Assembly (NCBI GenBank): GCA_020354555.1
Contig: CP070648.1
Location: 2,544,152-2,608,151 of the forward strand
Source of the DNA: Armatimonadota bacterium
Lineage (GTDB): Bacteria > Armatimonadota > Hebobacteria > GCA-020354555 > CP070648
Reading direction: 5' to 3'
Length of the DNA: 64,000 nt
The translations under genes and the position numbers were made by a program. The notes under the pieces were generated by a model that ran no database searches, was not told where the DNA came from, and worked only from the letters and a program-made list of their open reading frames with translations. Shown here in pieces: positions 6,972 to 60,588 of the stretch (position 1 is its first letter; every line of letters starts with the position of its first letter).

Positions 6972-7149
6972 AGCGATCCTCCGCGAGGTGATTCGGCATG
7001 CGCCGGGGCCCGCCCTGCCGAGGCTGTCTGGAGGATGAATCCACTCCACAGCGAAGTTAGAGCCCAAGCCATGAATGGCGAGAAGCCTTGGCGAGATCCT
7101 GCGCTTCGTTTGGCACAGCATCTCGGCTGACGACACGGGAGGGTCACGC

Positions 7150-8274
7150 ATGACCTCGCGGGAACGCCTGCTGGCGCTGCTTCAGGGCAGGCCGGTTGAT
7201 CGCTGCGGCGTGTGCACCTACACCCACGACGGGCTCAACAACTCCCGCCTGAGAGAGGAGCCGAGTTGTGCGGAGATGATGCCGGTCATCGACGCGGAAA
7301 CAGAGATCTTCCTCGGCTGGGGGCCCAAGGTTGAGCCCAACGTATTCCTGTCCACATCACCCGACATCTCCATCTCCGAGGAGGAGCACCCCGAAGACGA
7401 CCACGTCGTGATTCGCTCCACGCTCCACACGCCGAAGGATGATCTGCATTCCCTGTGCGTGAGGCACGACGGCGTCGCGACGACGTGGAAAGTGGAGCAC
7501 TATCTCAAGACCGACGAAGACGTCGAGCGGTTCCTCTCCATGCCGTACGTTCGCCCGCGCGTTGAAGACAATGATTTCGCTGGGGCCCTGGCGCGCGTTG
7601 GCGAGCGGGGGCTGGTCGAAATCGGGATGGCCGACCCGATCTGCTACGTTGCGGACCTCTTCGAATTCGGCGACTGGACGATAAGAGCGTGGCAGGACCG
7701 CAAGACGATCCGCCGGTTGCTCGACGCGATAGCGCCTCGCGTGTACGATTGGCTCGACGGCGTGCTCGCGCTGGGTATCAGCGGCACGGTGTTCAGGCTG
7801 TGTGGCCCGGAATACGCGAGCGAGCCGTACGTGAGCCCTGCGCTGTTCCGCGAGTTCGTGACCGAGTATGATCTGCCCATCGCGCGCAAGATGCATGACG
7901 CCGGATGCTACCTGCGCCTGCACAGCCATGGGCGGCTCGGCAACGTGCTCGACCACATCATGGAACTGGAGCCGGATATTCTCGAGCCCGTCGAAGGACC
8001 GCCGAGCGGAGACATCACCATCGGCGAAGTGGCGCGGCGCGTGGGGCGCGACTGCGTGCTCATGGGCAACCTCGAGCCGCGCGAGTTGGAGTTCGCCGAT
8101 GCCGAGGTGGTTGACGCGCTCGTGCGTGAGATCATGGCATCGGTGGCCGGTCATTCGCCGTTGATCGTCGCTCCGACCGATATGCCGATCGCCTTCCCGC
8201 TGTCGCCTGTCTACGCGCGCAACATCCGACGCTACGTCGAGGTGGTGTTGGAAGAGGCGGGCGAGTATAATTGA
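7150..8274 (+). CDS. uroporphyrinogen-decarboxylase (URO-D) family protein, function unknown (paralogue 1)
   Basis: ATG 7150 is preceded by GGGAGGG. The C-terminal half 'LRLHSHGRLGNVLDHIMELEPDILEPVEG...VLMGNLEP' is typical of URO-D/MtaA-like TIM barrels. Confidence 0.7.
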   Translation: MTSRERLLALLQGRPVDRCGVCTYTHDGLNNSRLREEPSCAEMMPVIDAETEIFLGWGPKVEPNVFLSTSPDISISEEEHPEDDHVVIRSTLHTPKDDLHSLCVRHDGVATTWKVEHYLKTDEDVERFLSMPYVRPRVEDNDFAGALARVGERGLVEIGMADPICYVADLFEFGDWTIRAWQDRKTIRRLLDAIAPRVYDWLDGVLALGISGTVFRLCGPEYASEPYVSPALFREFVTEYDLPIARKMHDAGCYLRLHSHGRLGNVLDHIMELEPDILEPVEGPPSGDITIGEVARRVGRDCVLMGNLEPRELEFADAEVVDALVREIMASVAGHSPLIVAPTDMPIAFPLSPVYARNIRRYVEVVLEEAGEYN

Positions 8275-8373: not shown

Positions 8374-9129
8374 ATGAGTGGCGGCTGTGCTGCGAGGAGA
8401 CGGACGCGCGAGTGGCGTGTGGAACGCGTGGTGGCTCCGGGGCGAGGGTACCACGCCGCGCTGACGCTCGTATCCGACGGTACGGAGCAGGCGTTGGTCA
8501 AGGACTACTCGGGCAGCGGGCCCTTGTTCCGCTTGGTCGCGGCGCCGTGGCTTGCGGCGCGGGAGGCGCGAATATACCGGCGATTGGCGGGCACCCGCGG
8601 GGTGCCGCGCTCCTACGGCCGGTGGGGGCGCACCGGGGTGCTGCTCGAATACGTCGACGGGCGCAACTGCCAGGAAGTCGCGCAAGGCGAAGTCGGCTCG
8701 TGTTTCTTCGACCGCCTGCGCGAGGTGGTGAGCGCGATCCACGGGCGCGGCGTGGCGCACTGCGACCTCAAGACGGCAGACAATATCGTGGTGACGCCCA
8801 CGGGCGAACCGATCATCGTGGATTTCGCGCAAGCCATCAGACGTCCAGCGCGATGGAATCTTCTGGCGCAGGCGATCTATCAGCGCTTCGAGCGCGACGA
8901 TTGGCTGGCACTCTCGAAGCTCAAGGCACGGCTGGCGCCGGGACTGTTGACCGAAGTGGAGATTCGCGCGCTGCGGTGGCGCAGCCCGGCTGAGCGGTTC
9001 GTCCGCGCGGTACGTGACCGCCTGCGGGCGCTGTCCCAGTGGGCGTTCGAGGCGGACGCGCGCGTCTCGCGCGCGCAGGAGAGAACTCGCGAGCGCGGCG
9101 CGTCGGCGCGAGTGCTGGCGCGGAAATAG
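8374..9129 (+). CDS. small atypical protein kinase (RIO / Kdo-WaaP-like fold)
   Basis: It has a catalytic loop 'HCDLKTADNIVV', a metal loop 'IIVDFAQAI' and an N-lobe Lys in 'QALVKDY'. The start is uncertain (TTG 8314 in the ORF track, or ATG 8374 after AAGGAA). Confidence 0.65.
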   Translation: MSGGCAARRRTREWRVERVVAPGRGYHAALTLVSDGTEQALVKDYSGSGPLFRLVAAPWLAAREARIYRRLAGTRGVPRSYGRWGRTGVLLEYVDGRNCQEVAQGEVGSCFFDRLREVVSAIHGRGVAHCDLKTADNIVVTPTGEPIIVDFAQAIRRPARWNLLAQAIYQRFERDDWLALSKLKARLAPGLLTEVEIRALRWRSPAERFVRAVRDRLRALSQWAFEADARVSRAQERTRERGASARVLARK

Positions 9130-9154
9130 AGATCGCTGTCTGAGGTCATTCCCT

Positions 9155-9616
9155 ATGCCGAGATGCGTCAGATGCGGCACCGAGAATCCTGACGGCCGCT
9201 CGCTGTGTTCCCAGTGCGGGGACGATCTGGCCGCTCAAGCGCAGATCGAGGACGACGACACGCTGATCATGCGCCTCGTTACCGGGGAAACGGCACGCCC
9301 ACGGGAGCAGGCGGCGCGCGCGTACCTGTGGCTCCTCGACCCGACCGGGGAGCAGGTCGAGCGTGCCGCGGAGATCTCAGACGATGAATCGGTGATCATC
9401 GGACGGCGGGCGGATTGTACGGTGGTCCTGCCCTCTAACACGGTCTCGCGGCGCCACGCGCGCATCTGGCGTGACGGCGACGACTACCTTCTCGCCGATC
9501 TCGGAAGCACCAATGGGACGCTGCTCAACGGCGAGCCCGCCATCGGCGCGGAGCGACTGAACGACCGCGACGAGATCGCAGTGGGCATCTACAAGTTGAT
9601 ATTCCGCAAGACCTGA
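9155..9616 (+). CDS. zinc-ribbon plus FHA domain protein
   Basis: The N-terminal 'CVRCGTENPDGRSLCSQCG' is a CxxC..CxxC ribbon. The FHA signature is 'IIGRRADCTVVLPSNTVSRRHARI...LADLGSTNGTLLNG'. ATG 9155 lies 25 nt after the kinase stop codon. Confidence 0.9.
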   Translation: MPRCVRCGTENPDGRSLCSQCGDDLAAQAQIEDDDTLIMRLVTGETARPREQAARAYLWLLDPTGEQVERAAEISDDESVIIGRRADCTVVLPSNTVSRRHARIWRDGDDYLLADLGSTNGTLLNGEPAIGAERLNDRDEIAVGIYKLIFRKT

Positions 9617-9741
9617 TGCGACAAGGTCGTTGCGTTACCGGAGAGTCCCAGGCCGGGCCGATCATGCCCGAGGGCTGCATTGCGGAAGAGCTTCGGGCCC
9701 TGCGATGACAGCCGAAACTCCATAATTGCGTCACACGACCT

Positions 9742-12654
9742 ATGCTCTATCCTGCGGCGGCTTTCGCTATCGCTTTCGTCGTGACCCTCGGCGGCACAGC
9801 GCTGCTGCGCCGCCGGCTCGGGGCATTCGTCTCGCGCGAGGCCAAGCCGGGCAAGGAGAGGATTCACCGGCTGTTCCCCAAGCCGCGCAAGCCCCTCGGG
9901 GGCGGCGTCGGCATGATGGCGGCCTTCGCCGCCGGTACCCTGGTCGCGGCGTGGCTGCGCGGCGATCCGCCCCGGATGATTGAAGCCGCCCTCGTCATCG
10001 TCGCAGGTGCTTGGCTGTTCGCCGCCATCGGCATCGGCGATGACCTGCGCAAGGCGCGCGGGGCGGGCATGTCGGAGCGGAGCAAGTTGCTGCTGCAGAT
10101 TGCGGCGGGGCTCGCGCTCGGCCTCTACCTCAAGCTGCGCGTGATGGGCGCGGGCGACGTGTACGTCCCGCTCGTCCGCTACACGCTTCACACCGGATGG
10201 CTCTATGTCCCGTTCGCGGCGCTGGTGATTATCGCGACGGCCAACGGCGTCAACCTGGCGGACGGCGTGGACGGGCTCGCGGCGGGCAGTGTCGCGATCG
10301 CGGGGTTCGCTTACTTCGTCATCGGGTCGTTCTGGAACCCGCAGGTGATGGTCGCGGCCCCGGCGTTGACGGGGGCGTGCCTCGGCTTCCTGGTGCTGAA
10401 TTACCCGCCGGCGCGCGTGCTCATGGGCGACACGGGTGCGTTGGGCCTCGGCGCCGCGCTGGCCATGATGGCGCTGCTCTCGATGGGCGAGTGGGCGCTG
10501 GTGCTCATCGGCGGCGTGTTCGTAATTGACGCGATGTCTGTCATCCTCCAAACCGGAGCGATACGCCTGGTGCGCGGGCCGGTGCAACTCCTGCGCCACC
10601 GCACGACGGAGGCCTGGCGGCCGTTCCTGTGCACGCCGCTGCACCATCATTTTCAGTGGTTGGGCTGGCGCGAGCCGCGCATCCTTGCGTTGTTCTGGAG
10701 CGTCGGCTTGCTGCTCGTCCTGCTCGGGTTTGCCGACTACGCGCTGCGCGTGGATTGGCCATGGCTCGTCGGGCTGGGGGTGATGGCCGCCTTCCTGGCC
10801 GGGGCGGCGTGGCAGAAGGTGGCGCGCGCCAACTTCTTCCTCGGGCTCATGCCGTCGCAGGAAGGGGAGGACCTGCTCGCGCTGTTCCGCGGCATACCCG
10901 TGCGCCTGCTCGGCCGTAGGCTGTATCAGCCCTGCAAGGTGACGCCGATACCCGAGAGCGCGGTCGAGTCGGTGGCGGAGGAGAATCTGTGGCGGCCGAT
11001 GGGGGAGGTCGAGGCGGAGATCATCCTCGGCAAAGTCTACTGCGATCATAAGCTTTACGACCAGGCGATTGGGGAGTGGGAGCAGGTGCCGGTGCGCAAC
11101 TTGATGCTGCGCGAGGACGTCGTGCTGCGCCTGGCGCGGATCTACTACGCGCGCAATCGGATTCTCGACGCCGTGCGGCTGTGGGAGAGGCTGCCGTCGG
11201 CGCGACAGGACAACGGCGAAGGTCTGGGCTCGGTCGTGGCACGCGCCAAGGCCCGCCTCGCCGACCTCGCAGGCAAGTCCTATCGCCAGGCGATGCGCTC
11301 CGGTGTCCGCGCCGAACTGGCACAGGCGCGCCGACTCAACCAGGACCTGCTCGAACTCCTGGTTTACGAGCGGGAGAAGCTGGAGGCTCCTGGGGCAGGC
11401 GCCCAGGTGCCGCAGGCGACGCACGAGCGCGGCCTCTTCCGACGGATGGAGCGGGCGGTGCTGCGGCGCATCGGCGACCTCGACCAGCGACTGGAAACCC
11501 CGGCGCCCGCCGTGCGCGCCGTGCCGGCGGCCGCACTCGACGAGCAGACCGAGGCTGTCGCGCGTCGTCTCGGGATCAGCACACAGGAACTCGTCGAGGC
11601 CTTCGCCGCCTGTCCCTACGGAGTCCCTCGCCTGCGATGGTGCGAGGCGGTGGCCGGAGCGTCGCGCAACGAAATCTACCGCATGGAGGCGGAGTGGGCC
11701 GGCCCGGAGACCATGATCGCGAAGCGCTATGACCCGGCGCGCATTCAGTTCTTTTCGGCGTGCTACCGGCGGGAGGCCGAGGTCGTGCGCTTACTCCATC
11801 AGTACGCGGTCAGCGTGCCGGAGTTCTACGGAGGAGTGGATAACGAGAAGCGTGCGGTGGGGTTCTTCGAGGATCTCGGTGCGGTGACCCTCGCCGGGCG
11901 CCTACGCGAGAACAAGCGCGAGGCGCGAGCACGACTGCTGGAGGAGGCGGTCAGAGCGGTCGCGCGGATGCACGCCGTGGCGCGGCGCAACCTGCCGCGG
12001 CTTCGCGAGGAGATCCTGCGCATCGACAAGGAAGCATTGAGCGAGCGGTATTACATGGACGCGTTCCGCATCGCGCTCGAACGGCTCGTGGAGACCGCTG
12101 GCGCGGAGCTGTCCGCCGATGAGCGGCGGATTGTGGAGGGCCAACTGAGCGAAGTGGCGGCGACCCTCGCGACTCAGCCCAAGACATTCATCCACTTCGA
12201 GCTCACGCCGCATCATCTGGCGGTTCGCGGCGATGACTTCGTGGCGTTCGACTTCGAGCAGGCGACGCTCGGCCCGCCCGAGTTCGACCTCGTGACGCTG
12301 CTGCGCTCCCCGGACAGCGACTTGCAGGATTCGGAAATCGAGCGCCTGCTCGAACGCTATCGGCTGTGCATGACGGAGTCGGATCCCGATCCCCTGCCTC
12401 CTCGCGCGCCCGCAGCCGCAGACTACGCGGCATTGTTCAAGGGACTGTTCTACGCCGGGGCCGCGGCGAATTTCTGGCGCAAATTCGACGACGAGGCGTG
12501 GCTGACTCGCTTGCGCTGGTACCTCAAGGACTGGCAGGCCGTGGCGGCGCGCTACCCCGGGCTGGCGGAAGTGGGGCACATGCTGCGCTCCCGCTTCGGG
12601 CGCATGCCGCGCGCTTCGGGGCAGGGCAACGGCACAGGTGGCGGAGCGACCTAG
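9742..12654 (+). CDS. mraY: phospho-MurNAc-pentapeptide translocase (MraY) fused to TPR repeats and a C-terminal APH-type kinase-like domain
   Basis: MraY motifs are present: 'IGDDLRK', 'NGVNLADGVDGLAAG', 'VLMGDTGALGLG' and 'PLHHHFQWLGW'. The C-terminus shows 'GASRNEIYRM..MIAKRY', 'FFEDLG', 'FIHFELTPHHL' and 'AFDFEQATLG..FDLVTLL'. The whole is a single 970-codon frame. Confidence 0.8.
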   Translation: MLYPAAAFAIAFVVTLGGTALLRRRLGAFVSREAKPGKERIHRLFPKPRKPLGGGVGMMAAFAAGTLVAAWLRGDPPRMIEAALVIVAGAWLFAAIGIGDDLRKARGAGMSERSKLLLQIAAGLALGLYLKLRVMGAGDVYVPLVRYTLHTGWLYVPFAALVIIATANGVNLADGVDGLAAGSVAIAGFAYFVIGSFWNPQVMVAAPALTGACLGFLVLNYPPARVLMGDTGALGLGAALAMMALLSMGEWALVLIGGVFVIDAMSVILQTGAIRLVRGPVQLLRHRTTEAWRPFLCTPLHHHFQWLGWREPRILALFWSVGLLLVLLGFADYALRVDWPWLVGLGVMAAFLAGAAWQKVARANFFLGLMPSQEGEDLLALFRGIPVRLLGRRLYQPCKVTPIPESAVESVAEENLWRPMGEVEAEIILGKVYCDHKLYDQAIGEWEQVPVRNLMLREDVVLRLARIYYARNRILDAVRLWERLPSARQDNGEGLGSVVARAKARLADLAGKSYRQAMRSGVRAELAQARRLNQDLLELLVYEREKLEAPGAGAQVPQATHERGLFRRMERAVLRRIGDLDQRLETPAPAVRAVPAAALDEQTEAVARRLGISTQELVEAFAACPYGVPRLRWCEAVAGASRNEIYRMEAEWAGPETMIAKRYDPARIQFFSACYRREAEVVRLLHQYAVSVPEFYGGVDNEKRAVGFFEDLGAVTLAGRLRENKREARARLLEEAVRAVARMHAVARRNLPRLREEILRIDKEALSERYYMDAFRIALERLVETAGAELSADERRIVEGQLSEVAATLATQPKTFIHFELTPHHLAVRGDDFVAFDFEQATLGPPEFDLVTLLRSPDSDLQDSEIERLLERYRLCMTESDPDPLPPRAPAAADYAALFKGLFYAGAAANFWRKFDDEAWLTRLRWYLKDWQAVAARYPGLAEVGHMLRSRFGRMPRASGQGNGTGGGAT

Positions 12655-12766: not shown

Positions 12767-13552
12767 ATGAGCGACGACGAGGTGGGCCGCTGCTGGGACG
12801 AGAACGCGGAGGTGTGGGCGCGGCACGTCCGCGCCGGCTACGATCACTACCGCGATCTCTACAACAACCCGGCGTTCTTCGAGTTCGTCGGTGACCTGGC
12901 GGGCCGGATGGTTCTTGACGCCGGCTGCGGCGAGGGCTACAACACCCGGCTCCTGGCGCGCCAGGGCGCGACGATGACCGGCGCGGATATCTCGACGAAG
13001 ATGATCGAGTTGGCCCGCGCGGAGGAGCAGCGCGAGCCGCTGGGGATACGGTATGAGGCCGCTTCGATCAGCGACCTGTCGCTGTTCGCCGACGCGACCT
13101 TCGACGCTGTGGTCTCCACAATGGCGCTGATGGACTGCGCCGATTACGAGGGCACGATTCGCGAGTTCCAGCGCGTTCTGCGACCGGGCGGCTTGCTCGC
13201 CTTCAACGTGTGTCACCCGTGCTTCACCTACGCGATTCGCGACTGGGACTACGATGAGAAGGGCGACGTCGTTGGCATTCGGCTCGGGGCGTACTTCCAG
13301 CGGGGCTCCCACGTCGAGCGCTGGCGGTTCGGCGCCGCACCCGACTCCGAGGATGCAGATCCGTTCACGGTGATCTACTTCCACCGGACGTTGGCAGAGT
13401 TCTTCAACCCCTTTTGCGCGGCTGGGTTCAGCATTGAAGCTGTCGCCGAGCCGCAGCCAACGGAAGAAGCGTGTCAGGCTGATCCACGGCTGCGCAAGCA
13501 CCGCCTCGTCCCGCAAACGCTCTGTGTCAAGGCGCGCAAGGCCGAGCGGTGA
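12767..13552 (+). CDS. class I SAM-dependent methyltransferase
   Basis: Motif I is 'VLDAGCGEGYNT', and 'RVLRPGGLL' is also present. ATG 12767 lies 10 nt after GGAGGAG. Confidence 0.85.
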   Translation: MSDDEVGRCWDENAEVWARHVRAGYDHYRDLYNNPAFFEFVGDLAGRMVLDAGCGEGYNTRLLARQGATMTGADISTKMIELARAEEQREPLGIRYEAASISDLSLFADATFDAVVSTMALMDCADYEGTIREFQRVLRPGGLLAFNVCHPCFTYAIRDWDYDEKGDVVGIRLGAYFQRGSHVERWRFGAAPDSEDADPFTVIYFHRTLAEFFNPFCAAGFSIEAVAEPQPTEEACQADPRLRKHRLVPQTLCVKARKAER

Positions 13553-18523: not shown

Positions 18524-20353
18524 GTGGAGGCCACGTTGGTGTTGGCGCTCGGTAATGTGCCGCCGCTGGTTATCGGACTCGCCGCCGCAGCTCTGGGCTA
18601 TGCGCTGCCGGCGATATGGCTGCGCGTGACGGCGAGGCGTTGGCGCAAAGCCCCTCATTCGCGCACGGTGCGCATCGTATCCGGCGCAGGGGTGTTCGCC
18701 GCCTTCGTCGTTCCCCTGGTCGTGCTGGCTTCGGGTGAGGCGATACGCCCGGTCGCCCTCGCGTGCGCTGCCGTGTTCGTCGTCGGCGTCGCCGACGACG
18801 TCCACACGCTGCCGCGCTGGCTCAAGCTCCTGTTGTTTGCAGCGGTCGCCTATTGGGCGCACTCGCTCGGGATCCGCATCGACACGGTCAAGCCGCCGTT
18901 CACCACGGCATACGCGAACCTGGGACTGTGGTCGGCCCCGGTGACCGTGATCTGGCTGCTCGGCGTGATGTGGGCCATCGCGCTCAGCCGCCGAGTACCG
19001 GGCCTCACCCCGGGGCTGGTGGCCCTCATATCACTGACGTTCGCCGCGGCTGCGGGAATCGCGCCGGGCAGCCCGAGGGCGGTCACGGTAGCGATTACGT
19101 TCCCCCTGGCCGGCGCGGCGCTCGGTTATCTGCGCTATGAGCTGCCGCCGGCGCGGATGATGCTCGGCAGCAGCGGACACTATGCGCTCGGCTTCGCGCT
19201 CGCCGCCGTGAGCGTCATCGGCGCGCTCAAGAACACCGCCTTTCTCGTTGTCGGGCTGCCGTTGCTGGTGCTGGCGGTGCCGCTGCTCAATACGACCTAT
19301 GCGGCGGTGTACGCGTCTCGCCGCGGCCGCGCAGCTTTCACCATCGCGCCGCGCGCGGAATACCTGCACCAGATCATGCTCCGCGAGGGCGTGCGCTTGC
19401 GCCACGTCGTGCTCTTGTTCTACATGATGACGGCATACCTGTGCCTCGTGGGTCTGATCCTTGTCGTCGTCATCGAGGTGTCGTTCCTGGTCAAGTTCGC
19501 GCTGCTGGCGGTTCTGGTCGCCATCGGGCTGGTTGGATTCTATGTCACGGCGCGAGTTCTCTCGCATCCCGACGCAGTCGGGCACAGCGCCGTCGAGCTC
19601 CTGGGCGTGGCGGTGCATCGCACCGACGTCGCCGGCGCGCTGCATCGCATAACGCAGTTCGTCGAGGAAGGCGCGCCGCATCATGTCGTGACTCCGGATT
19701 CCTCGGCACTGGTGCGCGCTCAGGAGGACCCGGAGTTGATGGATATTCTGCGCTCGGCCGACCTCGTCACCGCCGATGGCGCCGGCGTCGTGTGGATGGC
19801 CAAGGTGCTGGGCTTGCCGCTGTGGGAGCGCGTCTCGGGCGTGGATCTGATGGATCACATCTGCGAACTCGCCGCGGAGAAGCGCTACTCCGTTTACCTG
19901 CTCGGGGCCGCGCCCGGCGTCGCCAAAGCCGCCGCGCAGAAGCTTCAGGAGTGTTACCCGGGCCTGACCGTGGCGGGCACGACGCACGGCTATTTCAACG
20001 AGACTCAGGAGTCGCAGGTGGTGCACCGCATCGCCGAGGCGAAGCCGGACATCCTCTTCGTGGCGCTCGGCGTGCCGAAACAGGAGAAATGGATCCGGCG
20101 CCATCTCGACGATCTCAAAGCGCCGGTGGCGATCGGCGTCGGCGGCAGCTTCGACGTCATCTCGGGGCGCGTGAGGCGAGCGCCCGCGTTTATGCGGCGG
20201 TGGGGCTTGGAGTGGCTGTGGCGAACGCTGTGGCAGCCGTCGCGCCTGCCGAGGCTCGCGGCGTTGCCGAGGTTCGTATGGATGGCCGCCGCCGACCGGA
20301 TACGCCGCCGCGGGCAGGCCGGACGCCCTGGGCAGTCGGCGCCCCCCGGTTGA
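18524..20353 (+). CDS. fusion protein: degenerate WecA/TagO-like polytopic membrane domain plus WecG/TagA/CpsF-family (GT26) glycosyltransferase
   Basis: The C-terminal ~240 aa ('VTPDSSALVRAQ...LVTADGAGVVW...LLGAAPGV...FVALGVPKQEKW...GVGGSFDV') are TagA/WecG-like. The N-terminal ~350 aa are multi-TM with 'GVADDV' but read 'VPGLTPGL' and 'MLGSSGH' where the GT4 family has DGxDGL and GDxGS. Confidence 0.8.
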   Translation: MEATLVLALGNVPPLVIGLAAAALGYALPAIWLRVTARRWRKAPHSRTVRIVSGAGVFAAFVVPLVVLASGEAIRPVALACAAVFVVGVADDVHTLPRWLKLLLFAAVAYWAHSLGIRIDTVKPPFTTAYANLGLWSAPVTVIWLLGVMWAIALSRRVPGLTPGLVALISLTFAAAAGIAPGSPRAVTVAITFPLAGAALGYLRYELPPARMMLGSSGHYALGFALAAVSVIGALKNTAFLVVGLPLLVLAVPLLNTTYAAVYASRRGRAAFTIAPRAEYLHQIMLREGVRLRHVVLLFYMMTAYLCLVGLILVVVIEVSFLVKFALLAVLVAIGLVGFYVTARVLSHPDAVGHSAVELLGVAVHRTDVAGALHRITQFVEEGAPHHVVTPDSSALVRAQEDPELMDILRSADLVTADGAGVVWMAKVLGLPLWERVSGVDLMDHICELAAEKRYSVYLLGAAPGVAKAAAQKLQECYPGLTVAGTTHGYFNETQESQVVHRIAEAKPDILFVALGVPKQEKWIRRHLDDLKAPVAIGVGGSFDVISGRVRRAPAFMRRWGLEWLWRTLWQPSRLPRLAALPRFVWMAAADRIRRRGQAGRPGQSAPPG

Positions 20354-23285: not shown

Positions 23286-24266
23286 CTACCTCCGCCGGCG
23301 AAACTGGTCGAGGAACACGGCAGCGATGATGATGACCCCGATTGCGACCTGCTGCCAGAATACCGGAACCCGCAGGAGGTCGCACCCGTTGCGCAACACG
23401 GCCATTATCAGCGCGCCAATGAGCGTCCCGGCCACCGTTCCCTGGCCGCCCATCAGGCTCGCGCCGCCGATTACGGCTGCGGCAATCGCGTCCAGCTCGT
23501 AGCCGACCCCGGCCGTCGGTTGCCCGATACTGAGGCGGCTGGTCAGCGCGAGGCCCGCCAGGGCCGACAGCAACCCCGCGATGGCAAAGATAATGGTCAC
23601 GACTCGCTTGACGGGAATTCCCGAGAGCCGGGCCGCCTCGGGATTACCGCCGATGGCGTAGATACTGCGCCCCAGTGATGTTCGGGTGAGCACCACGTGC
23701 GCCGCGACCGCGACTGCACCGGCGAGCAGCGCGGGCAGCGGAATGCCGACCCGTCGCGCCATCGAGAGGTCGGCGAACCTCTGCGGCACCCCGAACACGT
23801 TCACCCCGCCCGTGATAATCAGTGCGGCGCCCCTCGCAATGCCCATCATCCCCAGGGTGACGATGAACGAGGGCATTCGCCCAAACGCGGTCAGCGCCCC
23901 GCTCAGTGTGCCGACGCCAACGCCAAGCGCAACGCCGAGCAGCACCGACGGCGCGATCCCCACCCCGCTGCGCATCAACAGCGCCGCCGCACAGCCGCAC
24001 AGCGCCAGCACCGATCCCACCGACAGGTCAATGTTGCCGCTGATGATGACCATCGTCTCGGCGACCGCGAGGATTGCCACCGCCGACGCCTGTACCGCGA
24101 CAGTTGCCAGATTATTGGGCGTGAGAAAGTGAGGCGAGGCGAAGGATAGGATGACCCCCATCACGATCAACGCCGCCAGCGGCCGCAGCCACTCGGCAAC
24201 CCGCTGCCACGCCAAAACGGGTGCGACGTCTCCTATCACATGCGAGTTGTCTCTCTGTTGCCCCAT
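23286..24266 (-). CDS. sugar ABC transporter permease (RbsC/BPD_transp_2 type)
   Basis: It is multi-TM and Gly/Ala-rich, with 'IDLSVGSVLAL' and 'GGNPEAARLSGIPV', which are characteristic of CUT2 permeases. The start is either ATG 24266 or TTG 24272. Confidence 0.85.
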   Translation of the reverse strand: MGQQRDNSHVIGDVAPVLAWQRVAEWLRPLAALIVMGVILSFASPHFLTPNNLATVAVQASAVAILAVAETMVIISGNIDLSVGSVLALCGCAAALLMRSGVGIAPSVLLGVALGVGVGTLSGALTAFGRMPSFIVTLGMMGIARGAALIITGGVNVFGVPQRFADLSMARRVGIPLPALLAGAVAVAAHVVLTRTSLGRSIYAIGGNPEAARLSGIPVKRVVTIIFAIAGLLSALAGLALTSRLSIGQPTAGVGYELDAIAAAVIGGASLMGGQGTVAGTLIGALIMAVLRNGCDLLRVPVFWQQVAIGVIIIAAVFLDQFRRRR

Positions 24267-24379
24267 ACGCAATCCAATCCGAGTCGCTCAGTTGGATTCG
24301 CGACAAGATAGCACGCTCCTGCCCGCAGGCGTACGGGCAGGCAAAGGATGACGCACTCGCGGCGTGGAATCAGTGCGCC

Positions 24380-25483
24380 ATGACCGACCAGCACGTTGAC
24401 GATCAACAGCCCGCTGCCCTCGATCGCGCCGTCGAAGAGCGCATCGCCCGCTCGATCAACTTCGAGGAGGGCGACCGCGTTCCAATCTGGGACTACATTG
24501 ACAACCCTTCCGCCATCGACCACTTCGCGCCGGGCGAGGAGGATCTGCTCGCCGCCAATGTCAAGGTCTATCACGGCCTGGGGATTGACCTGTGCCGAGG
24601 CTTCGGCGGCAGCTACGCGGCAGAGCGCAACGGCGAGCAGCACACGGACGACGAAGGCGCGGTGCGCAGCATCATCTCGGGGCAGACCTGCTGGTCGGTG
24701 CGCAAGGCGATACGCAGCATCGAGGAACTGCGGGCGTACAAGCCGCCCGCGCCGCGCGACATCGAGCAGATGCGCGCGGAATGGGTGCCGCACGTGCGTG
24801 CCGTGCAGGCGGCGTTCGCGCCCCTGACGATGTACGTCCCCGGCCACGGCTGCGGCTTCCACGGCACGTACGACATGATGGGGCTCCAGCTCTTCTCCTA
24901 CGCCATCTACGACTGCCCGGCCGAGGTCGAGCGGCTGATCGAGGCCGGCAACGTCCCCGGCGTGCACATCGCAAGGATCGCCGCGGAGGCAAAGCTGTGC
25001 CCGCTCTTCTTCATCGGCGACGACATCGCCTACAAGCAGCGGCTGATGTTCTCGCCGGAATTCCTGCGCCGCACGTTCATCCGCGCGCTGCGCAACATGT
25101 GCGAGCCGCTGCGCAACGCGGGCATCAAGGTGATTTTCCACAGCGACGGCAATGTCACCGACATCCTCGATGACATGATCGAGGCGGGCATCAGCGGGCT
25201 CAACCCCATCGAGCCGCTGGCGGGGATGGATATCGGCTGGCTCAAGCGGCGCTACGGCAAGGAGTTGATCCTCGTTGGCAACGTGGATTGTTCCCAGGTG
25301 CTGCCGCTCGGCACGGTCGCGGAGGTCGTTGCGGCGGCAAAGGAATGCCTGCGCCAGGCCGCGCCGGGAGGCGGCCACTTCATCGGCTCTTCCAGCGAAA
25401 TCACGCCCAGCACGCCGCTCGAGAATGTCCTTGCATTCTATGAGGCCTGCCGCGAGCACGGCAGGTATCCGATTCGCCTGTGA
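24380..25483 (+). CDS. uroporphyrinogen-decarboxylase (URO-D) family protein, function unknown (paralogue 2)
   Basis: 'IFHSDGNVTDILDDMIEAGISGLNPIEPLAGMDIGWLKRRYGKELILVGNVDC...GGGHFIGSSSEI' is a typical URO-D-like C-terminal half. The start is re-set to ATG 24380, although the RBS there is weak. Confidence 0.7.
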   Translation: MTDQHVDDQQPAALDRAVEERIARSINFEEGDRVPIWDYIDNPSAIDHFAPGEEDLLAANVKVYHGLGIDLCRGFGGSYAAERNGEQHTDDEGAVRSIISGQTCWSVRKAIRSIEELRAYKPPAPRDIEQMRAEWVPHVRAVQAAFAPLTMYVPGHGCGFHGTYDMMGLQLFSYAIYDCPAEVERLIEAGNVPGVHIARIAAEAKLCPLFFIGDDIAYKQRLMFSPEFLRRTFIRALRNMCEPLRNAGIKVIFHSDGNVTDILDDMIEAGISGLNPIEPLAGMDIGWLKRRYGKELILVGNVDCSQVLPLGTVAEVVAAAKECLRQAAPGGGHFIGSSSEITPSTPLENVLAFYEACREHGRYPIRL

Positions 25484-59928: not shown

Positions 59929-60588
59929 ATGAGTGGAACCCGTGAATGGCTGGCGTACGCCGGACGCCTCGTCATCGGTAAACTGCGCGAGTGGTGGCGG
60001 CTGCTCGCCGTCAGTCGCGAGATGCACGCATTAGAGGAGCGGCGGGACGAACTCCTGCTGCGCCTCGGCAAGCGCTATCACCAGTACCTCACCGAGACGA
60101 GCGCGGAGCCGGTGCCTGCGGTGGCGGAAACGACGCACGATCTGCGCATCCTGCTTCAGCGCGTCGCGGCGCTGAATGACATGAAGGAGCACATCCGTCA
60201 GGAACAGTACCTGTATGTGCACCCGGAGCTCGTGGTTGAGTTGCCGCCATCGGCAACTGGTGAGCCTGAACCGCCGCCTGTGGCCAGCGCGCAGCGAACG
60301 AGAGCACAGGACCGCGGAGAGAGTATTGACTTCGCTGAGATGCCGCCCGCCCGGCGCGGCCCGCCGAGGCTTGGGGCGGACCGGGTTTGTGAGTGCGGCG
60401 AGACGCTGCCGCCGCGCGCGAAGTTCTGCCCCGCGTGCGGCAAGGCTCACGCGGTCGCCGCCGCGAAGGTGAGCGCCGAGATCGCGCCGCCCCGCAAATG
60501 CCCGAACTGCGGCACGGAGACGCCACTCGGCGCCGAGTTCTGCCCGGAATGCGGCGGGCACATAGACGCCGAAGTGTACGAGATGTAA
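59929..60588 (+). CDS. double zinc-ribbon protein with an N-terminal coiled-coil region
   Basis: 'CECGETLPPRAKFCPACG' and 'CPNCGTETPLGAEFCPECG' form the two ribbons. The RBS is GAGGTGAAGG. Confidence 0.6.
   Translation: MSGTREWLAYAGRLVIGKLREWWRLLAVSREMHALEERRDELLLRLGKRYHQYLTETSAEPVPAVAETTHDLRILLQRVAALNDMKEHIRQEQYLYVHPELVVELPPSATGEPEPPPVASAQRTRAQDRGESIDFAEMPPARRGPPRLGADRVCECGETLPPRAKFCPACGKAHAVAAAKVSAEIAPPRKCPNCGTETPLGAEFCPECGGHIDAEVYEM

Follow-up and report, generated by a model that had tools for sequence, protein, structure and literature searches.

We analysed a stretch of 64,000 nucleotides (the window) from an Armatimonadota bacterium (contig CP070648.1, positions 2,544,152 to 2,608,151 of the forward strand), in which the genes for a kinase-fold protein, a zinc-ribbon-FHA protein and a fusion of MraY with a kinase-like domain follow one another on the + strand. 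MraY, which is a target of antibiotics, performs the first membrane-committed step of peptidoglycan synthesis; we know of no dedicated phospho-dependent regulator of this enzyme. An earlier reading of the letters alone (the sequence-only reading) had proposed that the three genes form a phospho-threonine switch on lipid I synthesis, similar to a circuit of mycobacteria. When we re-read the sequence, all coordinates and motifs given there for the three genes matched. The intergenic gaps measure 25 nt (kinase to FHA) and 125 nt (FHA to fusion). The three open reading frames (ORFs) are:

8374–9129, + strand: mini-kinase ORF, 251 aa; ATG at 8374, stop at 9129, AAGGA 7 nt upstream of the ATG
9155–9616, + strand: zinc-ribbon-FHA ORF, 153 aa; ATG at 9155, stop at 9616; N-terminus MPRCVRCG...CSQCG
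9742–12654, + strand: MraY/kinase-like fusion ORF, 970 aa

Homolog names place the window in the Armatimonadota, and near-identical DNA is present in estuarine, marine-sediment and mangrove metagenomes.

The FHA protein and the MraY fusion

We retrieved the regions around fusion homologs, both in public assemblies and in species-representative genomes, and searched their six-frame ORFs with the window proteins. At 19 independent loci, including the window, a full-length ortholog of the FHA protein (about 152 aa, 147–256 bits) lies directly upstream of the fusion on the same strand. The FHA gene occupies this position at L001/2, L003, L004/5, L008, L010–L012, L015–L020, L027, L116/117 and L118, and the reverse approach, starting from FHA orthologs, gave the order FHA then fusion also at L113 and L115 (gaps of 4 and 21 nt). 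The gap between the two genes ranges from 4 to 185 nt at the nine loci for which coordinates were called or read. The flanks are unrelated between lineages: upstream we found dxs, a Mut7-C gene cluster, an acyltransferase or a radical-SAM gene, and downstream of the fusion, depending on the lineage, DUF3084, CSD, HtrA or methyltransferase genes. The adjacency persists down to a fusion identity of about 39%, with FHA proteins 51–75% identical and both flanks fully replaced. This gene order strongly supports the link between FHA protein and fusion that had been drawn from the window alone and, judged by it, the conserved unit is a two-gene FHA and MraY-fusion module of Armatimonadota.

Homologs of the fusion are common (more than 140 of full length, about 960–1030 aa) and belong to Armatimonadota wherever the source gives a name. 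The FHA orthologs form a discrete family of about 100 clusters scoring 134–338 bits, the next matches reaching at most 81 bits, and again every source that gives a name points to Armatimonadota.

In three independent lineages (L004/L005 13030–14346, L113 9491–10783, L115 9503–10780), the gene next to the fusion on its downstream side encodes a DUF3084 protein of about 430 aa. The module may have in it a third member that is conserved in part; the window has no such gene and carries a methyltransferase gene at that place.

The FHA protein passed the Pfam FHA cut-off (PF00498, 68.9 bits versus 20.7) and matches Zn_Ribbon_1 with 26.6 bits. Its conserved elements are:

C4, C7, C18 and C21, + strand: zinc ribbon, kept in 15 aligned orthologs (C7 in at least 85%)
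G83-R84, S98-R-R-H101 and S118-T-N-G-T122, + strand: phospho-Thr pocket of the FHA domain, from the ortholog alignment
9260–9262, + strand: codon of Thr36 in the linker motif D-[DE]-D-T-[LI]-I-[MIL]-R-L, which reads D33-D-D-T36-L-I-M in the window

Within the pocket, G83-R84, S98-x-x-H101 and T119-N120-G121 are invariant or at least 85% conserved among the 15 orthologs, and by these residues the domain would be competent for phospho-Thr binding. Thr36 of the acidic motif is invariant in the aligned orthologs (15/15) and is also present in L113, L114 and L115. Many FHA domains accept ligands of the type pT-x-x-[I/L/M], and GarA and OdhI carry an N-terminal phospho-acceptor. The DDD-T36-LIM motif fits this ligand type and recalls the phospho-acceptor of GarA and OdhI, and we infer that Thr36 is a candidate site of phosphorylation at which the FHA domain could bind its own chain. 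GarA (45 bits), OdhI (38 bits), FhaA and the zinc-finger-FHA protein ArnA (42.6 bits) are the closest solved structures. With 52.2 bits, under the equivalog cut-off of 200, the protein is not a member of the NCBIfam family GarA/OdhI (NF041660), and its top NCBIfam match, FhaB/FipA (NF049868), reaches 63.6 bits and also stays under its cut-off (125).

The fusion matches Glycos_transf_4 with 106.9 bits and passed the APH cut-off (PF01636, 68.3 bits versus 23.2), and its score against TIGR00445 mraY (180.4 bits) lies just under the equivalog cut-off of 192.05. An AlphaFold2 (AF2) model with a predicted local distance difference test score (pLDDT) of 88.9 and the profile matches divide it as follows:

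9742–10746, + strand: MraY domain, residues 1–335, with 10 transmembrane (TM) helices; DD, NxxNxxDGxDGL, MGDTG and HHH motifs intact
10756–10827, + strand: extra 11th TM helix, residues 339–362, a helix in the AF2 model; sequence WPWLVGLGVMAAFLAGAAW
10834–11496, + strand: small beta domain and helical-repeat, TPR-like region, residues 365–404 and 422–585; AF2, pLDDT mostly above 85
11629–12597, + strand: APH/AmgK-type kinase-fold domain, residues 630–952; Pfam APH, profile and fold match to PDB 3csv

All catalytic residues of the MraY domain (D100, D101, N168, N171, D174, D177, D230 and H301–H303) are invariant in 62 homologs, and Foldseek aligned the domain to MraY structures with target-normalized TM-scores (TMt) of 0.82–0.86. 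Canonical MraY has both termini outside. Because of this topology and the extra TM helix, the C-terminal domains of the fusion should be returned to the cytoplasmic side; the sequence of the 11th helix is hydrophobic, yet it scores under the 1.5 threshold of the hydropathy scan. The label 'TPR' in the sequence-only reading has no Pfam TPR match behind it, while the AF2 model does contain an all-helical repeat region at residues 422–585.

The kinase-fold domain keeps K661, E678 and D837 (DFE motif), all of them invariant in the 62 homologs. Its catalytic loop reads H818-F-E820-L-T-P-H-H, versus HxDxxxxN in the Brenner motif, and failed the test for an APH loop. The catalytic Asp is replaced by Glu in 62/62 homologs, and where the FHA-linked clade has His in place of the loop Asn, the FHA-less clade keeps the Asn (TPGN). 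A profile of the domain matches PDB 3csv (47 bits; HFE aligns with HRD, and H with N), which is also the nearest structure in Foldseek (APH/AmgK-type, TMt 0.70). AmgK is the nearest curated family, although the match is weak (40 bits versus a cut-off of 550). The domain is of the APH/AmgK type and not a Hanks-type pseudokinase; since the catalytic loop is altered (Glu for Asp, HH), it is an atypical and possibly inactive member of this small-molecule-kinase type.

At residues 824–825 of the fusion (window 12211–12216), the first His is found in 13/14 and the second in 14/14 FHA-linked fusions; the six fusions that have no FHA gene upstream (L006, L021, L024, L025, L026 and L029) all read TP-G-N there and so keep the canonical Asn. 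The loss of the Asn coincides with FHA linkage, but both sets are also separate clades. The same holds for 62 clade-specific columns of the fusion, which track FHA presence between two sets that are phylogenetically separate.

The mini-kinase

The mini-kinase ORF carries VAHCDLKTADNIVV and IIVDFAQAI. In the public gene call (P0001, 236 aa) it starts later, at GTG 8419, which is residue 16; the AAGGA lies 7 nt upstream of the ATG at 8374, and residues 1–11 are disordered in the model. The protein passed the Pfam RIO1 cut-off (PF01163, 26.6 bits versus 22) with a partial match (profile positions 54–153 of 187) and failed the Hanks-type test, scoring 19.7 bits against Pkinase (PF00069; cut-off 31.7). 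Each of the 44 relatives gives a weak match to PRK12274 and PRK09188, two NCBIfam clusters that are uncharacterised and named 'serine/threonine protein kinase', and 20/44 match Pfam RIO1; the mini-kinase itself remains far under the PRK12274 cut-off (59.9 bits versus 372). We looked for Kdo/WaaP kinases as well (PF06293 and NF002475). The window protein gave no Pfam match at E ≤ 0.01 and 21.5 bits against the Kdo-kinase model (cut-off 142), and among the relatives 3/44 match PF06293 and 16/44, weakly, the Kdo-kinase model. A Kdo/WaaP kinase was considered and rated low.

In the AF2 model (pLDDT 86), the mini-kinase adopts a minimal kinase fold with a long C-terminal helix. Only helices follow the DFA motif, and the model has neither an activation segment nor a substrate-binding C-lobe. 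The best Foldseek matches were RIO2 (query-normalized TM-score 0.57), the kinase domain of class III lanthipeptide synthetase (LanKC) and PknB; searching PDB sequences with a family profile retrieved LanKC kinase domains, Rio2 and Hanks-type kinases (for example StkP), plus Bud32/TP53RK. Residues K43, E64, D131, N137 and D150 show no variation, or almost none, across the 44-member alignment. Since the catalytic residues are kept throughout these relatives, the mini-kinase is probably catalytically competent. Its loop, HCDLKTADN, has one residue more than that of Archaeoglobus fulgidus Rio2 in the alignment, the RIO-type loop being HGDLSEYN. A Lys or Arg in an HCDL[K/R]xxxN loop is typical of Ser/Thr protein kinases, and known RIO-type enzymes are mainly ATPases or autokinases. 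We regard the protein as an unclassified RIO-like mini-kinase, for which the evidence leans towards a protein kinase or ATPase type over a sugar kinase. The Kdo/LPS sugar kinase (LPS, lipopolysaccharide) mentioned in the sequence-only reading found little support: fold and profile matches favour the RIO/protein type, and an LPS-core cluster surrounds one homolog only.

An exhaustive search at E ≤ 1e-10 gave 643 clusters for the mini-kinase family, nearly all stand-alone proteins of 200–250 aa, and the nearest homolog anywhere is 44% identical. A word-indexed search of 5.8 billion proteins (E ≤ 0.001) returned eight sequences, namely the window protein and seven relatives at 35–41% identity. 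Family loci were scanned with an 8-sequence alignment, as the larger family alignment was too diverse. None of the 83 loci with family members has an FHA gene or a fusion nearby. Recurrent neighbours are Fur-FeoA, a metallo-beta-lactamase (MBL) hydrolase, rpe, gph, trpE, mnmA, hypD and a hybrid histidine kinase. The commonest is the Fur-FeoA fusion gene, which lies convergently, a median 22 nt downstream of the kinase homolog, at 16 loci of L033–L112 (for example L090 3063–3770). Another homolog sits between purB and mnmA. The best named homolog (41% identical) was found inside an LPS-core cluster of a Thermodesulfobacteriota metagenome-assembled genome (L030 1–16675), in the order msbA, lptF, lptG, waaA, lpxK, heptosyltransferase (GT9), trm112-like gene, kinase, PEMT/ICMT-like gene, PTP, sulfatase (EptA-like) and PagL. 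No LPS genes adjoin the kinase in the window, which failed the test for an LPS-core context.

At the fusion loci other than the window, about 24 independent ones with flanks of up to 10 kb where the contig allowed, we detected no homolog of the mini-kinase at E < 1e-3. The sequence-only reading had counted the kinase as the third part of the switch; across fusion loci, the triad is not found outside this genome. Four close relatives with fusions 73–77% identical lack the kinase, and two of them have the same order of a URO-D-like (uroporphyrinogen-decarboxylase-fold methyltransferase-like) gene, FHA and fusion: L001/L002 (fusion 77% identical) and L116 (76%), with 190–330 nt at the position of the kinase. 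L003 and L118 (fusions 74% identical) are likewise without it. By blastn, the window is collinear with close relatives on both sides of the mini-kinase, and neither tblastn nor blastn found decayed kinase remnants in their URO-D/FHA spacers. The G+C content at third codon positions (GC3) of the mini-kinase is 0.825, equal to that of its neighbours. Recent horizontal transfer was considered and rejected: there is no compositional signal, and the nearest homolog is only 44% identical.

In contigs of four independent metagenome studies, the order URO-D, kinase, FHA and fusion is contiguous at an identity of at least 99%, and no contig from these four metagenomes skips the kinase gene. Metatranscriptome contigs run across the kinase/FHA junction at 8993–9189 (0 mismatches) and 9051–9251 (7 mismatches). 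The mini-kinase is fixed in this species and is apparently co-transcribed with the FHA gene. It was gained between the URO-D-like and FHA genes in the lineage of this species and is outside the conserved module, so the triad of kinase, FHA protein and fusion is at best a lineage-specific embellishment.

The URO-D-like gene at 7075–8274 (+) is the conserved neighbour upstream of the FHA gene in the nearest relatives. It is one of two URO-D/MtaA-like paralogs in the window, the other lying at 24221–25483 (+).

Proposed phospho-dependent control of MraY

We consider it fairly probable that the FHA protein and the MraY fusion form a two-gene phospho-control module, to which the mini-kinase is a lineage add-on. 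The FHA protein, a cytoplasmic one, would bind to the MraY fusion at its tail in the cytoplasm and, once docked, would tune lipid I synthesis according to the threonine phosphorylation state. It might act as a switch in the style of GarA and OdhI, in which phosphorylated T36 would make the FHA domain bind its own tail and release the target. The phosphate donor in most species could be an unlinked Ser/Thr kinase or the atypical kinase-fold domain of the fusion itself. Neither a Hanks kinase (PF00069) nor a PP2C phosphatase is encoded in the annotated fusion loci or among the approximately 48 ORFs of the window, genes outside these sequences being unsearched. In this species alone, the FHA switch may have acquired the mini-kinase as a further input.

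Several observations weigh against a module of this kind. No FHA gene lies upstream in six divergent fusion loci (L006/7, L021, L024, L025, L026 and L029), which hold the most divergent fusions (32–39% identity over the C-terminal query region); six further fusion loci were too truncated for judging FHA presence. An FHA ortholog with an intact DDDT motif (L114 6001–6468) adjoins a GH123-family gene and no fusion. This ortholog and the FHA-less fusion locus L006 (10001–13042) come from the same sample and have like G+C contents (0.487 versus 0.486), and the two are probably an unlinked pair within one low-GC Armatimonadota genome. In the window, the gap of 125 nt between FHA gene and fusion exceeds that of most relatives, and co-transcription across it can only be supposed; one contig of unknown library type reaches position 9700. 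The metatranscriptome contigs at the kinase/FHA junction are short and of low depth and could stem from contaminating DNA. Finally, FHA docking, the tuning of lipid I synthesis and the T36 switch are proposed from synteny and motifs, and phosphorylation of T36 from its motif.

The alternatives differ in the role that they give to each of the three proteins. In the triad originally proposed, the mini-kinase would be the cognate Ser/Thr kinase for the fusion tail or the FHA protein, and the FHA protein would read the mark and switch lipid I synthesis. The shared strand, the 25-nt gap and the RNA contigs across the kinase/FHA junction fit this, as do an arrangement fixed in natural populations, a full set of catalytic residues with Lys or Arg in the HCDL[K/R]xxxN loop, and the protein-type kinases RIO2, LanKC and PknB/StkP as nearest folds and profiles. 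We nevertheless regard it as unlikely, with the triad missing outside this species at about 24 other fusion loci and 83 kinase-family loci, the module present without the kinase in four close relatives whose fusions are 73–77% identical, and a kinase model that lacks the activation segment and substrate-binding C-lobe, known RIO-type enzymes being mainly ATPases or autokinases. The mini-kinase could instead be a small-molecule kinase (for an LPS-core sugar, Kdo/WaaP-like) or a RIO-like housekeeping ATPase that adjoins the FHA gene incidentally. Its best named homolog (41% identical) does lie inside an LPS cluster, 16/44 relatives weakly match the Kdo-kinase model and 3/44 Pfam Kdo/WaaP, and the family neighbours housekeeping genes (rpe, gph, trpE and mnmA). 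We hold this to be quite improbable, as the window protein has no Pfam Kdo/WaaP match and 21.5 bits against a cut-off of 142, an LPS context occurs in 1/83 loci, RIO, Pkinase and LanKC matches dominate, and the tight, operon-like spacing to the FHA gene would have to be a coincidence.

A different possibility concerns the fusion. Its C-terminal domain could be an active AmgK-like kinase for N-acetylmuramic acid or N-acetylglucosamine (or another precursor) that feeds recycled sugars to MraY, and the FHA protein would then regulate or scaffold this activity rather than MraY itself. AmgK as nearest curated family (40 bits), the nearest structure 3csv of the same APH subgroup, the invariant ATP-binding Lys-Glu pair and metal-binding Asp of DFE, and the canonical Asn (TPGN) kept by the FHA-less clade speak for it. 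The exchange of the catalytic Asp for Glu in all 62 homologs and of Asn for His in the FHA-carrying clade argues the other way, together with an AmgK score far under the cut-off of 550 and no MurU-like partner in the examined fusion neighbourhoods, and we judge such an activity rather improbable. Still less probable, in our estimation, is that the FHA–fusion adjacency is no more than inherited operon structure and that the FHA protein acts on other targets such as the divisome, like FipA/FhaB. FhaB/FipA is indeed the top NCBIfam match (63.6 bits), and one FHA ortholog is unlinked from any fusion, but the score is under the cut-off of 125, and an adjacency that outlasts full flank turnover and fusion divergence to about 39% identity would be unexpected without selection.

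The two-gene module invites comparison with several known systems. Closest to it in logic is the circuit of the MviN(MurJ) pseudokinase, FhaA and PknB in mycobacteria, which has been summarised (PMC12599244). Here as there, a membrane enzyme of peptidoglycan lipid precursors carries a kinase-fold domain on the cytoplasmic side (predicted in our case), a dedicated FHA protein is the presumed phospho-Thr reader, and the outcome would be control of precursor supply. In contrast, the enzyme here is MraY, the lipid I synthase, and there the flippase MurJ; the appended domain is of APH/AmgK type with Lys, Glu and DFE, whereas that of MviN is a Hanks-derived pseudokinase without ATP binding. In addition, the FHA protein and its presumed target have adjoining genes here, the neighbourhood encodes no PknB-type kinase, and the phylum is Armatimonadota. 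Since the FHA gene adjoins the fusion at 19 loci with unrelated flanks, the analogy with MviN/FhaA appears reasonable in logic: the module would be an analogue of the mycobacterial circuit, not a member of it. Of the mycobacteria-like phospho-switch suggested earlier, the coupling of FHA protein and fusion is upheld by conserved synteny, and conservation gives no support to the mini-kinase as its third part; the fixation of the kinase in this species and the two RNA contigs across the kinase/FHA junction speak against rejecting it outright.

GarA and OdhI of Actinobacteria are likewise small single-FHA proteins with an N-terminal Thr motif that is a candidate self-ligand when phosphorylated, and, as we presume here, they act on an enzyme and not on a signalling protein. 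Unlike them, the protein in the window begins with a zinc ribbon, its motif is acidic (DDDTLI versus ETTS), and its presumed target is a membrane glycosyl-phosphate transferase instead of enzymes of the tricarboxylic acid cycle or of glutamate metabolism. ArnA of Sulfolobus (PDB 5a8i) shares the order of an N-terminal zinc ribbon or finger followed by an FHA domain. ArnA is under Ser/Thr kinase control within the ArnC/ArnD network (PMC5300886). It differs in being archaeal, in controlling archaellum expression with the vWA protein ArnB and in having no link to cell-wall synthesis. The minimal kinases of the RIO2/Bud32 type resemble the mini-kinase in their truncated fold without an activation segment, RIO2 being its best fold match. 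The mini-kinase departs from them by the extra residue and the Lys of its loop (HCDLKTADN versus HGDLSEYN), and its family consists of stand-alone bacterial proteins of about 230 aa for which no link to ribosomes or KEOPS is known.

A full-text literature search retrieved no paper on an FHA–MraY pairing or on a fusion of MraY with a kinase fold. If true, a self-contained switch of FHA protein and fusion would give MraY its first known hard-wired regulatory module. A conserved FHA partner and a kinase fold fused to MraY would extend the MurJ-pseudokinase/FhaA logic to another enzyme, another kinase lineage and another phylum, and the pair would offer a compact two-protein system for testing such logic. 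The pairing across this poorly studied phylum suggests that the first membrane step of cell-wall synthesis is under a control not yet described. In addition, the locus illustrates how a conserved core and a lineage-specific passenger can be told apart within a triad proposed from synteny.

A further-reaching version, which we offer tentatively as a possibility rather than an expectation, is that the FHA protein and the MraY/helical-repeat/APH-like fusion constitute a self-contained, phylum-wide phospho-switch on lipid I synthesis. The atypical kinase fold of the fusion (Glu for Asp) would be the writer or, alternatively, a sensor of muropeptides or nucleotides, the DDD-T-LI motif would be toggled, and the RIO-like mini-kinase would provide an extra input in this species.

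Other features of the window

Downstream of the fusion lies one further gene on the same strand:

12767–13552, + strand: SAM-dependent methyltransferase (SAM, S-adenosylmethionine), Pfam Methyltransf_11 91.8 bits

The methyltransferase is kept at this position in the nearest relative only (L001/L002), other genes standing there in L003, L004, L008, L113, L115 and L118; it is outside the module. Rfam gave no match at E ≤ 0.1 in the 125-nt spacer between FHA gene and fusion or across the region. The RNA fold of this spacer is unremarkable (z-score −1.4), and promoter and terminator scans of the region were at or below chance.

At 59929–60588 (+), another, 219-aa double-zinc-ribbon protein is encoded (DZR 42.7 bits, Zn_Ribbon_1 43.8 bits), which has no FHA domain. 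At 18524–20353 (+) lies the gene of a 609-aa fusion of an N-terminal Glycos_transf_4 domain (WecA/MraY superfamily, 69 bits) with a C-terminal WecG/TagA glycosyltransferase (228 bits). This is the second fusion of a polyprenyl-phosphate sugar-phosphate transferase in the window, and it would join the first two steps of a linkage-unit pathway or one of the enterobacterial common antigen (ECA) type in one polypeptide.

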